Assembly (NCBI GenBank): GCA_025056305.1
Contig: JANWWJ010000031.1
Span: 66,861 to 130,860, forward strand
Length of the DNA stretch: 64,000 bases
Direction: 5' to 3'
Origin: Chitinophagales bacterium
GTDB lineage: Bacteria; Bacteroidota; Bacteroidia; Chitinophagales; UBA10324
Shown here piece by piece: positions 32,698-53,817 of the stretch (positions are counted from its first letter, which is position 1; the number at the start of each line of letters is the position of its first letter). The translations under genes and the position numbers were made by a program. Below the pieces are notes generated by a model, which had not been told where the DNA came from, ran no database searches, and saw only the letters and a list, made by a program, of their open reading frames with translations.

Positions 32698-32709
32698 GAC
32701 AAAAAAATT

Positions 32710-32808
32710 AGGGCAAGTGACTTTTATCGCACCGCTACAACCGCCTACCCTTGCTGCCTTCCGACCCTGGGGGTGTTCAGCAGGAGCTGGTCGTAAAAGG
32801 CTTGCCCT
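32710..32808 (-). ncRNA. ffs: Signal recognition particle RNA (small, 4.5S-type)
   Basis: The minus-strand transcript contains CAGGGUC-GGAA-GGCAGCAAGGGUAG. This matches the conserved SRP domain IV (GGAA tetraloop closed by GUC/GGC, with the AGCA symmetric-loop motif), as in E. coli CAGGUCCGGAAGGAAGCAGCCAAGGCAG. The terminal helix AGGGCAAG/CUUGCCCU encloses about 99 nt and is followed by a U7 run. The ends are approximate. Confidence 0.8.
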
Positions 32809-32921
32809 GTTGCAAATGTAAAAGGTGCATGCATTTGACCCATGAGATTTTTCGAAAAATAGTTTTGAACAAATCCTTGGGTATTTTTCTTCGAAAAAGA
32901 CATGAAAGAAATAAAGAGGCT

Positions 32922-37618: not shown

Positions 37619-38230
37619 CTAATAGCCCAACAACTTACGCAAAAACTCTTCCATGAAGGCTGGCCGCAACATTGCCGTGAAGGCCAAACCAAACACGGCT
37701 CCGGTAAAGTGGGCGCTGTGGTTGATGTTGTCACCCCCGCGATAGCTCATGATGTGCGAATACGCCAAATACAGCACCCCCCAAACGATGGCAGGCATAG
37801 GCAGCATACCCATGAGAAATATGGTGTTGCGCGGGTCGATCAGCACAAAAGCAAACGTTACGGCCGACACCGCCCCTGAGGCACCCAAACTGGCGTACCA
37901 GCTCACGTGCCGGTAACGGAAATACGTGGGCAGGTCGCTCACAACTATGCCAGCGACATATAGCAAAATAAACAATGCCGTGCCCCAGGGATCAAAATAC
38001 AACTGGTAGTAACGGAGCACCACCGTTCCGAATGAATAAAGCACTAACATGTTAATGAGCAGATGCGGCCAGTTGGCATGAATCAAGCCAGAGGTGATAA
38101 AGCGCCACCATTCACCATGGTGGGCTATGGCATAAGGCCTCATGGCCATGCGTTCCAACAACAAAGGCTGTCGAAACCCCGAATAGGAAAACAACACGGT
38201 TATCAGGATAATGATCAGAACTACGGACAT
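37619..38230 (-). CDS. Rhomboid family intramembrane serine protease
   Basis: WRFITSGLIHANWPHLLINM, the catalytic GASGAV, and a distal H in HFTGAVFG, with 6 TM helices. Confidence 0.85.
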   Translation of the reverse strand: MSVVLIIILITVLFSYSGFRQPLLLERMAMRPYAIAHHGEWWRFITSGLIHANWPHLLINMLVLYSFGTVVLRYYQLYFDPWGTALFILLYVAGIVVSDLPTYFRYRHVSWYASLGASGAVSAVTFAFVLIDPRNTIFLMGMLPMPAIVWGVLYLAYSHIMSYRGGDNINHSAHFTGAVFGLAFTAMLRPAFMEEFLRKLLGY

Positions 38231-38313
38231 GAGCAGGGCGCCAAAGTATGCTAAAGAACCCGCACTTTAAGCCCCCCGGGGGAAGTGGGCTGATCAACAA
38301 TAATAGTGCCAAC

Positions 38314-38334
38314 AAAATAGCGAGATTTCGCTAT
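38314..38334. repeat. 21-nt repeat copy 1 (AAAATAGCGAGATTTCGCTAT) containing an 18-nt hairpin palindrome
   Basis: Read directly. ATAGCGA-GATT-TCGCTAT is a 7-bp-stem palindrome, and there is an identical 21-mer at 38720-38740. Confidence 0.85.
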
Positions 38335-38336
38335 TG

Positions 38337-38679
38337 GCATACCATACACGGCTATATTCTTTTGTATCCGCCATGATACCCAAATATGATGAAGCACAAC
38401 GATGGCAGCTCAAAGCTGTCCGTCGGTTTATATGGAGGCTTCAGGCGCTTCGGGGTCATGGGTATGCTATATACTTCAGGTTTGTGCCGGCGGAAAGACG
38501 GACGTGTGGAATATCAACTCATGGGGTGAGGCGAGGGCTAAATATCAATCCCAGCAGGCACCACATGTCTGGTTCCGCCGGCCCTGAAGGCTAAGCAGCG
38601 CAAGGGAAAAACAAACGAAACAACCCTATCGTATCCTAAGGCTGCCCGAATAAAAGGGCAGTTTATTTTTCTTTTTTTT
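38337..38679 (+). ncRNA. Candidate unclassified structured RNA (boundaries uncertain)
   Basis: Long-range complementary segments: GCATACC 38337-43 with GGTATGC 38461-67; GCCGGCGGAA 38486-95 with TTCCGCCGGC 38573-82; AGAC 38496-99 with GTCT 38567-70; GTGTGG 38504-09 with CCACAT 38561-66. The region ends in a strong terminator and has no convincing ORF. No known RNA family recognised. Confidence 0.3.
38642..38679 (+). terminator. Intrinsic terminator (plus strand) with no protein gene upstream
   Basis: CTGCCC-GAATAAAA-GGGCAG followed by TTTATTTTTCTTTTTTTT. Confidence 0.65.
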
Positions 38680-38719
38680 ATTCAATAAAAATTCATTTGT
38701 CTGCAAAATTCATACCGAA

Positions 38720-38740
38720 AAAATAGCGAGATTTCGCTAT
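38720..38740. repeat. 21-nt repeat copy 2 (AAAATAGCGAGATTTCGCTAT)
   Basis: Perfect match to 38314-38334, 406 bp downstream. Confidence 0.85.
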
Positions 38741-39071
38741 GGTGCCGCTGTGCTGCCTCTTGTTTTTTTACGGGTACTATGATGCTCTGTGGCACAGCAA
38801 GAGCCCCAATGAGCAATTAATGCTGCCATGAATCATTGTGTTCTGTTGTGCTGCTGTGCACGTAGTTATAAAGTATGGATCAGGAAATGTAGGTGAAAGG
38901 CAACCCAGGCGACGAGAAGAGGCGCTGTGCATACGCCCCTGATGTTGCCCATCTTTTTGGTGTTGCCTTTCACTTTTCCTGATGTAAGGAATTGGGGTTA
39001 CACCGCTTCCGCAGGCCTTCACGACCATTATAAAATGGCCAGATTACTTCTGTTATTATGAAAAGTTGTGC

Positions 39072-39500
39072 TCAATGTTCCAGATGATATGGATGACCAT
39101 GCATGATGGTAAAAGCACGGTACAATTGTTCAGCCAATACGACACGTGCCAGATGATGCGGCAGGGTCATGGGTGATAACGATAGCTTCCAATGGGCCTG
39201 TTGCAGCAAACGATCATCTATCCCATCGGGACCACCGATGACAAAAACCAAGTTTCGCCCCTCATTTATGCGTTGCTGTAGCCATTGAGCCAACTGATCG
39301 GAACTCATGCTCACGCCTCGCACGTCCAGGGCAACCACGACATCAGAACGGTTCAGCCAAGCTTGCTTTCCCGACTTCTTTTCCGCTAAAACACGGCTTT
39401 CTATGTTACAATACTTCCGTAGCCGCAACACATAGCGATTGTACAATTCCGTTGCCTGTGGATCTTTGGTTGTGGAAAGCAACACGATGCTGATCAACAT
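39072..39500 (-). CDS. rlmH: 23S rRNA (pseudouridine1915-N3)-methyltransferase RlmH
   Basis: SPOUT family. FVIGGPDG and C-terminal LSLSPMTLPHHLARVVLAEQLYRAFTIMHGHPYH match the RlmH pattern. Confidence 0.85.
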   Translation of the reverse strand: MLISIVLLSTTKDPQATELYNRYVLRLRKYCNIESRVLAEKKSGKQAWLNRSDVVVALDVRGVSMSSDQLAQWLQQRINEGRNLVFVIGGPDGIDDRLLQQAHWKLSLSPMTLPHHLARVVLAEQLYRAFTIMHGHPYHLEH

Positions 39501-53741: not shown

Positions 53742-53743
53742 TG

Positions 53744-53817
53744 TGATCCCGTCAGGATTCAAACCTGAAACCTTCTGATCCGTAGTCAGATGCTCTATTC
53801 AGTTGAGCTACGGGATC
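53744..53817 (-). tRNA. tRNA-Arg (anticodon ACG)
   Basis: Manual cloverleaf of the reverse complement: acceptor GAUCCCG/CGGGAUC, D arm GCUC-AACUGAAUA-GAGC, anticodon arm UCUGA-CUACGGA-UCAGA (anticodon ACG), variable AGGUU, T arm UCAGG-UUUGAAU-CCUGA, discriminator A. 74 nt, CCA not encoded. Confidence 0.9.

Follow-up and report, generated by a model that had tools for sequence, protein, structure and literature searches.

A probable structured RNA gene with its own promoter and terminator, and a diverged tandem copy, between rlmH and a rhomboid protease gene of an uncultured Chitinophagales bacterium

Which product, if any, arises from the 840-bp gene-free spacer (38231-39071) that lies between a rhomboid protease gene and rlmH in the genome of an uncultured Chitinophagales bacterium? 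The spacer is part of a stretch of 64,000 nucleotides (nt) of contig JANWWJ010000031.1 (assembly GCA_025056305.1), which is referred to as the window; the rhomboid protease and the RlmH encoded there match NCBI proteins labelled 'MAG: Chitinophagales bacterium' (MAG, metagenome-assembled genome) with 100% identity. An initial annotation, made from the letters of the window, had flagged positions 38337-38679 as a novel plus-strand structured RNA of roughly 200-350 nt that ends at an orphan terminator. Comparison with related genomes supports this interpretation and corrects its structural details. The segment 38313-38679 is probably a self-contained transcription unit for a plus-strand non-coding RNA (ncRNA) of ~300 nt, termed W1, and the first of two tandem units in the rlmH-rhomboid spacer. 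The sequence evidence very probably describes a previously undescribed folded ncRNA gene with its own promoter and terminator beside a diverged second copy, termed W2. The predicted parts of W1 are the following, where P1 and H1 to H3 denote helices, MFE stands for minimum free energy, and L1a, L1b and S3b are homologous units introduced below.

38370-38679, plus strand: W1, predicted ncRNA of ~300 nt, beginning at the predicted start just 5' of CCAUG and including the whole U tract of the terminator
38371-38461, plus strand: 5' domain closed by helix P1 (38371-77/38455-61 and 38379-81/38452-54)
38462-38473, plus strand: single-stranded linker GUAUGCUAUAUA, conserved in W1, L1a, L1b and S3b and unpaired in every MFE fold
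38474-38589, plus strand: long hairpin domain (~116 nt) with H1 (38474-80/38583-89), H2 (38486-95/38573-82) and H3 (38499-509/38561-71)
38519-38538, plus strand: UCAUGGGGUGAGGCGAGGGC, the most conserved block, located apically in the long hairpin; nearly identical among W1, L1a and L1b and recognisable in S3b
38590-38638, plus strand: variable A/C-rich tail, not conserved in the homologues and mostly unpaired in the MFE fold
38639-38679, plus strand: intrinsic terminator found by a terminator scan (stem 38639-47/38656-64, 8-nt loop, U-rich tract; -15.1 kcal/mol)

Region 38337-38679 folds on the plus strand with an MFE of -127.5 kcal/mol (z = -5.55), a value reached by none of 100 shuffles. The perfect 10-bp helix 38486-95/38573-82 described in the initial annotation is present in the sequence. 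Inverted repeats of 10 bp are common in the window (20 compared to ~5 in shuffles), and this helix by itself is therefore at chance level. The inner pairings 38496-99/38567-70 and 38504-09/38561-66 also exist, with the MFE fold preferring the neighbouring register 38499-38509/38561-38571, an H3 of 11 bp including two G.U pairs. Two copies of AAUAUCAA are found at 38510-17 and 38541-48 as described, and these repeats are specific to W1. The hairpin CAGC-UCAAA-GCUG was located at 38406-18 as part of a hairpin at 38400-38425 within the 5' domain, and the terminator at 38639-64 with its T tract was recovered as well. Other structural proposals changed. The hairpin CUCA-UGGGG-UGAG is broken in L1b (UCA/UAA), and both the consensus and the MFE fold instead pair UGGGG (38522-26), the G run of the apical block, with UCCCA (38549-53). 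A 7-bp pairing of 38337-43 with 38461-67 does exist in the DNA. Its 5' arm, however, precedes the predicted -7 box (38353-64) and is probably not transcribed, and a counterpart is found only in L1a. The RNA is predicted to start near 38370 and not at 38337. Helix H1 (CUUCAGG/CCUGAAG at 38474-80/38583-89), P1, the promoter, the flanking palindromes and W2 had all been missed. In the revised fold of the long hairpin, a 5' bulge spans 38481-85 and the apical region 38510-60; the apical block UCAUGGGGUGAGGCGAGGGC is unique in the window. The linker comprises 12 nt, with the family consensus GCUAUAYRC (GCUAUAUAC).

Relatives of the locus were located by a protein search with the neighbouring rhomboid, and the carriers of homologous units are all metagenome assemblies. 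Only three lineages were found at a rhomboid identity of at least 69%. In genome L001 (rhomboid 84% identical), the equivalent spacer of 984 bp contains two tandem copies, L1a and L1b; genome L008, which was found among GTDB genomes with the DNA pattern of the core, belongs to the same species. A further species, species 3 (rhomboid 80%, Logan assemblies), contributes two units on two contigs that both end exactly at the repeated palindrome described below: the unit start S3a adjoins the rhomboid gene on one contig, and the complete unit S3b adjoins rlmH on the other. In genome L004 (rhomboid 69%), a single distant unit, L4, lies within a 436-bp spacer. Searches with nhmmer and covariance models match W1 to its homologues, and covariance model R2, which describes the long hairpin, scores 90-100 bits on all four of them. 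Neither R2 nor R1, the model of the 5' domain, detected further copies when run on the window and on 115 kb of loci. The DNA pattern of the core retrieved only L008 from GTDB genomes and nothing from Joint Genome Institute (JGI) metagenomes or viral contigs, and a rhomboid protein-pattern scan of GTDB genomes yielded no relative. In the collections searched, the family is confined to four uncultured Chitinophagales species.

A 1.1-kb gene-free, repeat-rich stretch upstream of the orthologous rhomboid gene in a Chitinophagaceae MAG (L015, GCA_016717285.1, positions 863-2000) looks superficially like a further array with palindrome and T-rich box. Its direct repeat of 176 nt, with copies 94% identical at a spacing of 393 bp, begins with both the palindrome CACCCGATTGAAATCGGGTG and a T-rich box, and a GC-rich repeat of 50-80 nt (GGCCCCTCAAGGGGC...) is present in three copies. 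With a z-score of +0.35 for the repeat unit and no match to the models, this array was rejected as unrelated.

Covariation among homologous spacers, on which the initial annotation had made its call depend, is present: the spacers contain the element, and its helices are backed by compensatory changes. RNAalifold predicted 39 pairs in the four alignable sequences, with compensatory changes in 14. For P1, 92.5% of the cells are paired and both sides are changed in 4 of 10 pairs; its covariation score was reached by one of 500 shuffles, and sliding the partner strand by 1-3 columns lowered pairing to 17-45%. The long hairpin has 32 consensus pairs with 90.6% of cells paired, and 13 of these pairs are changed on both sides. 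This was matched in none of 500 shuffles, and the slid controls were 33-50% paired. Taken together, P1 and the long hairpin contain both-side changes in 17 pairs. The apical helix UGGGG/UCCCA (helix 5) is 95% paired across the alignment.

The same helices indicate the strand. Read on the plus strand they contain 21 G.U compared to 5 A.C combinations, an excess which identifies the plus strand as the RNA strand, and the plus-strand MFE is lower than that of the minus strand in four of six units. It has to be considered whether the minus strand could be the functional one, as a long structured 3' untranslated region of rlmH or a rhomboid leader that ends at the palindromic terminators. The minus strand of 38337-38679 does fold better than shuffles (z = -3.5), and the palindromes are minus-strand terminators. 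However, the 21 G.U pairs become C.A mismatches on that strand, compared to 5 in the opposite direction, and the conserved promoter and terminators lie on the plus strand, which makes this explanation extremely improbable.

The architecture of the units was compared by independent MFE folds of W1, L1a, L1b, S3b, W2 and L4. All six folds share one plan of two separate domains followed by a tail. P1 is present in each of them with differing sequences: the first nucleotides (CUAUG...) pair with a CAUAG ~80 nt further 3' and close a 5' domain of ~90 nt. In the long hairpin, H1 is separated from H2 by an A/U-rich bulge of 4-5 nt that is confined to the 5' strand; H3 and an apex follow, where the G run of the apical block (consensus UCAUGGGGUGAGGCGNGGGC) is paired with (U)CCCA further 3'. 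In all six units, the 5' domain and linker together measure 98-103 nt. For the hairpin domain the length is 105-122 nt, and ~155 nt in the whole-unit fold of L4. Core z-scores are -5.0 for W1, -3.4, -2.8 and -4.9 for L1a, L1b and S3b, -7.8 for W2 and -1.8 for L4. The strands of the main helices are listed by unit.

W1: P1 CCAUGAU-CCC / GGG-GUCAUGG; H1 CUUCAGG / CCUGAAG; H2 GCCGGCGGAA / UUCCGCCGGC
L1a: P1 CUAUG..CCUCUG / CAGGGGCAUAG; H1 CAUCAGGG / CCCUGAUG; H2 with one A.C mismatch
L1b: P1 CUAUGUUGCAG / CUGCAACAUAG; H2 GCCGGU-UGCAGAAG / CUUCUGCACCGGC
S3b: P1 CUAUGCUGCU / AGCAGCAUAG; H1 CGUCAGAGG / CCUCUGACG; H2 GGCCGGCGAC / GUCGCCGGCC
W2: P1 ACUAUG-UGC / GCA-CGUAGU; H1 AUCAGGAAA / UUUUCCUGAU
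L4: P1 AUGUUUUA / UAAAACAU; H1 UCGGGC / GCCCGA

The second unit of the window follows the terminator of W1 and is in turn followed by the convergent rlmH.

38776-39060, plus strand: W2, diverged tandem paralog that starts with ACTATGAT; P1 38776-85/38858-66, linker UAUAAAGUAUGG

The long hairpin of W2 (38879-38983) comprises 105 nt with a near-perfect 24-bp stem and a 4-nt 5' bulge, and it repeats the order of H1, bulge and H2. The domain lengths of 102 and 105 nt, the palindrome and the spacing are as in the other units. W2 is the most stable unit. It has a weak 3' hairpin and degenerate promoter elements at -33 and -7, and it is devoid of both the conserved linker and the G-rich block. W2 is treated as a putative diverged paralog and L4 as a probable distant member of the family. 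When the linker was compared by eye with the apex and tail for pseudoknots, and the G-rich block with the rhomboid start region and the 3' end of 16S rRNA for complementarity, nothing consistent was found.

Seven unit starts from four genomes could be aligned without gaps except for one 4-nt gap in L4. Each is ordered as A tract, palindrome, TTG, 20-nt spacer, TATATTnTTTTG, 8 nt and CACTATG. Both TTG and TATATTnTTTTG are conserved across the seven units at fixed spacing, with 8 nt between the box and the start of P1, and the promoter segment ATTGACAACGG of L4 is identical to that of L1b. The corresponding features of the window are listed below.

38335-38364, plus strand: predicted sigma-AB-type promoter of W1 (-33 element TTG at 38335-37, 20-nt spacer, -7 box TATATTCTTTTG at 38353-64)
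38313-38334, minus strand: A tract and palindromic hairpin ATAGCGA-GATT-TCGCTAT at the 5' edge of unit 1, a putative terminator-like insulator
38723-38740, minus strand: exact repeat of the palindrome, which borders unit 2 on its 5' side and was called as a minus-strand terminator by the terminator scan

For the sigma-AB promoter of Bacteroidota, the consensus -33 TTTG and -7 TAnnTTTG has been published (PMC7366714). The TTG and the T-rich box match this promoter, and a sigma-AB-type promoter is predicted accordingly. At the 3' end, L1a, L1b and S3b have plus-strand terminators at the place equivalent to that of W1, with stem sequences that all differ. In its intergenic location and its 3' Rho-independent terminator, W1 agrees with canonical intergenic small RNA (sRNA) genes of the class described in PMC7366714. 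W1 is followed by its terminator, W2 and the convergent rlmH and by no plus-strand gene, which does not fit a riboswitch or a cis-acting leader.

The palindrome occurs in two exact copies in the window compared to 0.05 expected, and it is present 5' of every unit in the relatives with the consensus ATAGCGA-GAWW-TCGCTAT. In L4 it reads ATAACTA-AAAT-TAGTTAT, where two arm positions are changed on both sides in a compensatory manner. On the minus strand the palindrome forms a hairpin followed by UUUUGUU, with folding energies from -7.7 to -14.5 kcal/mol. It may serve as an insulator that halts minus-strand transcripts, either those entering from rlmH or those antisense to the unit. In JGI metagenomes the palindrome pattern had a sole match, contig Ga0102814_10006015 (L013), where the identical hairpin AAAAAATAGCGAGAAATCGCTATTTTTT (2872-2892) lies between convergent open reading frames (ORFs) and looks like an ordinary bidirectional terminator. 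This contig was rejected as a relative, as it belongs to an unrelated AT-rich genome and the identity is due to chance; its terminator-like setting there nevertheless supports reading the palindrome of the units as a terminator.

The initial annotation had excluded known RNA classes such as RNase P, transfer-messenger RNA (tmRNA) and riboswitches by eye, and this exclusion held. A search with the 4227 models of Rfam 15, which include RNase P, tmRNA, 6S, 6S-Flavo, riboswitches, ribozymes and Bacteroidota motifs, returned only the RNA of the signal recognition particle (SRP) and one tRNA at gathering thresholds in the whole window, both elsewhere. At E <= 10, the sole plus-strand match that overlaps W1 is Pinc with 15.2 bits compared to a gathering score of 60, which is noise, and the 6S models gave no match even at this threshold. 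No Rfam matches were found inside the units of L001, L012 (a species 3 contig) and L004. ARAGORN detected no tmRNA in the window and only a tRNA-Arg at 53743-53817.

The initial annotation had also seen no credible plus-strand protein gene, a statement that needs more discussion since W1 could be a small-protein gene or a dual-function RNA, i.e. a leaderless mRNA for a peptide of ~73 amino acids from the AUG at 38373 (38373-38594). W1, L1a, L1b and L4 have ORFs of 73, 73, 76 and 71 codons whose starts lie at the conserved ATG or close to it, and the L4 ORF, with 71 codons as called and 66 from the ATG conserved among units, was annotated by a gene caller. On the other hand, the W1 ORF was left uncalled in the source assembly, no gene is annotated at the L001 units, and a comparison with 5.8 billion protein clusters revealed neither a homologue of the W1 ORF nor so much as one word in common. 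The translations of the units align poorly, and the variable columns do not show an excess at third codon positions (0.65/0.78/0.72 at positions 1/2/3). The codon phase counted from the shared ATG agrees between pairs of units in just 36-81% of columns, and conserved nucleotide blocks fall in different frames in different copies. Moreover, the S3b ORF stops after 58 codons and is in another frame at the conserved block, while W2 stops after 13 codons. All three frames of W1 are largely open, and the length of the ORF was matched in 23 of 150 dinucleotide shuffles. The conserved AUG can be explained as part of the 5' strand of P1 (CUAUG/CAUAG). Judged by these sequence features, the 73-codon ORF is most plausibly non-coding and resembles neither a small-protein gene nor a type I toxin gene, and a coding function of W1 is highly improbable.

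The ORFs nevertheless belong to a group of observations that weigh against the reading of the units as a family of structured ncRNA genes. The covariation comes from four alignable and mutually related sequences of three genomes, so that its statistics are thin. With filters off, W2 reaches 13.7 bits with R2 (E = 0.039 in 5 kb) and does not match R1; no model matches L4, whose core z-score is only -1.8. Membership of W2 and L4 thus rests on position, promoter homology and architecture. Both the start site and the 3' end of W1 are predictions. The absence of the family outside one small clade, in the collections searched, means that its context offers no functional association, and a structural rather than seed-pairing function is suggested by the pattern of conservation alone.

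The genes around the spacer provide information about its origin.

37619-38230, minus strand: rhomboid gene, one flank of the spacer
39072-39500, minus strand: rlmH, the other flank

In six further relatives (rhomboid 54-62% identical), the gap between rlmH and rhomboid is just 20-140 bp in five and synteny is lost in one. Where units are lacking, the two genes are on the same strand in an operon-like arrangement. The units therefore appear to be a lineage-specific gain in a formerly compact and probably co-transcribed gene pair. Since then they have changed rapidly, with a nucleotide identity between units of ~50% compared to 80-84% protein identity of the adjacent rhomboids. The two copies of species 3 are ~85% identical over their first 46 nt and resemble each other much more than L1a and L1b do, suggesting a recent duplication or gene conversion. 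The short-read contigs of species 3 break at position 1 of L002 and position 4767 of L012 (Logan SRR27730020 contigs), and the observation also concerns L003. As assemblies break at the repeated palindrome and promoter, tandem RNA units of such kind are likely under-represented in metagenome assemblies.

The compact gene pair in relatives without the element also raises the question of a role in cis, in which convergent plus-strand transcription and the minus-strand terminators would uncouple or tune rlmH and rhomboid, by interference or as antisense to rlmH read-through, without any target in trans. The operon-like arrangement of the two genes only 20-140 bp apart fits such a role, as does the minus-strand hairpin with U tract just 5' of the promoter in every unit. 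The unit that adjoins rlmH ends ~40 nt or less from the rlmH stop codon in S3b and abuts rlmH in L4. However, neither interference nor antisense transcription needs the two-domain fold, linker and apical motif that have been kept by compensatory changes, and the single locus reflects vertical inheritance, so that position is not independent evidence. An exclusive role in cis is therefore considered unlikely.

The insertion into an otherwise compact spacer could likewise be ascribed to a selfish or decaying repeat without cellular function, similar to a miniature inverted-repeat transposable element (MITE) or a cassette, flanked by palindromes and with an outward promoter. Identical palindromes bound the units, the units are duplicated in tandem, and their turnover is fast, as seen from the identity values given above. 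Neither MITEs nor insertion sequences are a good description of the units, because each carries one palindrome and not terminal inverted repeats with a target duplication. Further copies of the palindrome or the core were not found elsewhere in the window, and a blastn search against phage and plasmid collections and the search of viral contigs gave no match. No transposase or integrase was seen among the genes neighbouring W1/W2 or the L001 units. As the helices have been kept by compensatory change, which points to selection on the RNA, this explanation is very unlikely.

For the preferred reading, a free-standing structured RNA, the following course of events can be proposed. Transcription would start ~6-8 nt past the Bacteroidota-type -7 box, and the 5' end would at once be locked into P1, closing the ~90-nt domain. 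The unpaired linker GCUAUAUAC would lead to the irregular hairpin of ~116 nt with the G-rich UCAUGGGGUGAGGCGNGGGC at its apex, and the variable tail followed by the intrinsic terminator would finish the RNA. The upstream palindrome would act as a terminator for the other strand, stopping rlmH read-through or antisense transcripts from entering the unit, the next promoter and rhomboid. The product presumably acts as a free, stable, structured RNA. For its function, binding of a protein or ligand or a role as scaffold seems more likely than classic seed pairing, because domain lengths, P1 and the H1-bulge-H2 design survive in W2 and L4 despite near-total sequence loss, and because the units are only ~50% identical next to the much better conserved rhomboids. 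Where the copies can be aligned, in four units, the conserved linker and the G-rich apex stand out as candidate contact sites. Going further, the units may represent a new class of mid-sized (~300 nt) two-domain RNAs in which three-dimensional architecture and not sequence is selected, with a role as ribonucleoprotein scaffold, in ligand binding or in catalysis, of recent origin in one Chitinophagales clade and already diversifying by tandem duplication; this broader proposal is tentative and itself rather doubtful.

Some features of the units are known from other bacterial RNAs. 6S RNA is stable and acts by binding a protein; like W1, as predicted here, it is highly structured, a few hundred nt long and independently transcribed. 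6S RNA forms one long hairpin with a central bubble and has its own 5' and 3' ends paired, whereas W1-type units consist of two independent domains and an unpaired tail. Adjacent paralogous RNA genes, each with promoter and terminator, are likewise found in PrrF1/PrrF2, OmrA/OmrB and the Qrr family. These belong to Proteobacteria and are short RNAs that depend on Hfq and pair through conserved seeds, whereas the paralogs W1 and W2 keep architecture and not sequence. With the canonical intergenic sRNAs of Bacteroidota, i.e. GibS and the 'high-confidence' set of Bacteroides thetaiotaomicron (PMC7366714), W1 shares the stand-alone intergenic gene, the sigma-AB-type -7/-33 promoter and the Rho-independent terminator. 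In B. thetaiotaomicron, long stretches of several intergenic sRNAs are reported to be unfolded, and the seed used by GibS is single-stranded and conserved (PMC7366714). W1 differs in having no sequence or Rfam relationship to them, in being ~300 nt long and almost fully paired, in its occurrence in Chitinophagales and not Bacteroidales, and in being predicted from sequence. An elaborate covarying fold with no adjacent cis-regulated gene is shared with the raiA motif, OLE, ROOL/GOLLD and the intergenic-region motifs of the Breaker laboratory (PMC10861870, PMC11109978). According to a published abstract, raiA occurs in more than 2,500 species, whereas the W1 family is found in four uncultured species only, matches no Rfam 15 model and is smaller than OLE, ROOL and GOLLD.

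W1 and its relatives are best described as an RNA family that is new but of an ordinary type: a bacterial small RNA gene that is intergenic, ends in a terminator and forms part of a tandem pair. As a structured RNA it is well supported. To our knowledge, ncRNAs of Bacteroidota have hardly been described except in gut Bacteroides and a few flavobacteria, and in Chitinophagales not at all. The locus would represent an RNA gene family early in its history, which was inserted into the compact rlmH-rhomboid pair, duplicated in tandem and evolved rapidly while its fold was kept. If expressed, it would be a compact case for studying the origin and diversification of new structured RNAs. The locus also offers a clean example of the grammar of promoter, terminator and insulator in Bacteroidota, with the narrow distribution limiting wider impact for now.

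In addition to the units, the spacer contains an element of the rhomboid gene itself, which keeps its own conserved TACTTTGG box ~14 nt 5' of its ATG (window 38231-38316, minus strand; L001 3940-4000). In L001, this upstream box sits inside the hairpin CCCTGCCA...TGGCAGGG. The short rhomboid leader is consistent with an independent promoter that was created or retained once the RNA units had split rhomboid from rlmH. Elsewhere in the window, a small SRP RNA of this Chitinophagales genome matches the Bacteroidales model at 32707-32814 on the minus strand (100.4 bits, E = 8e-20), and the tRNA-Arg (ACG) at 53743-53817, also on the minus strand, was found by both ARAGORN and Rfam.

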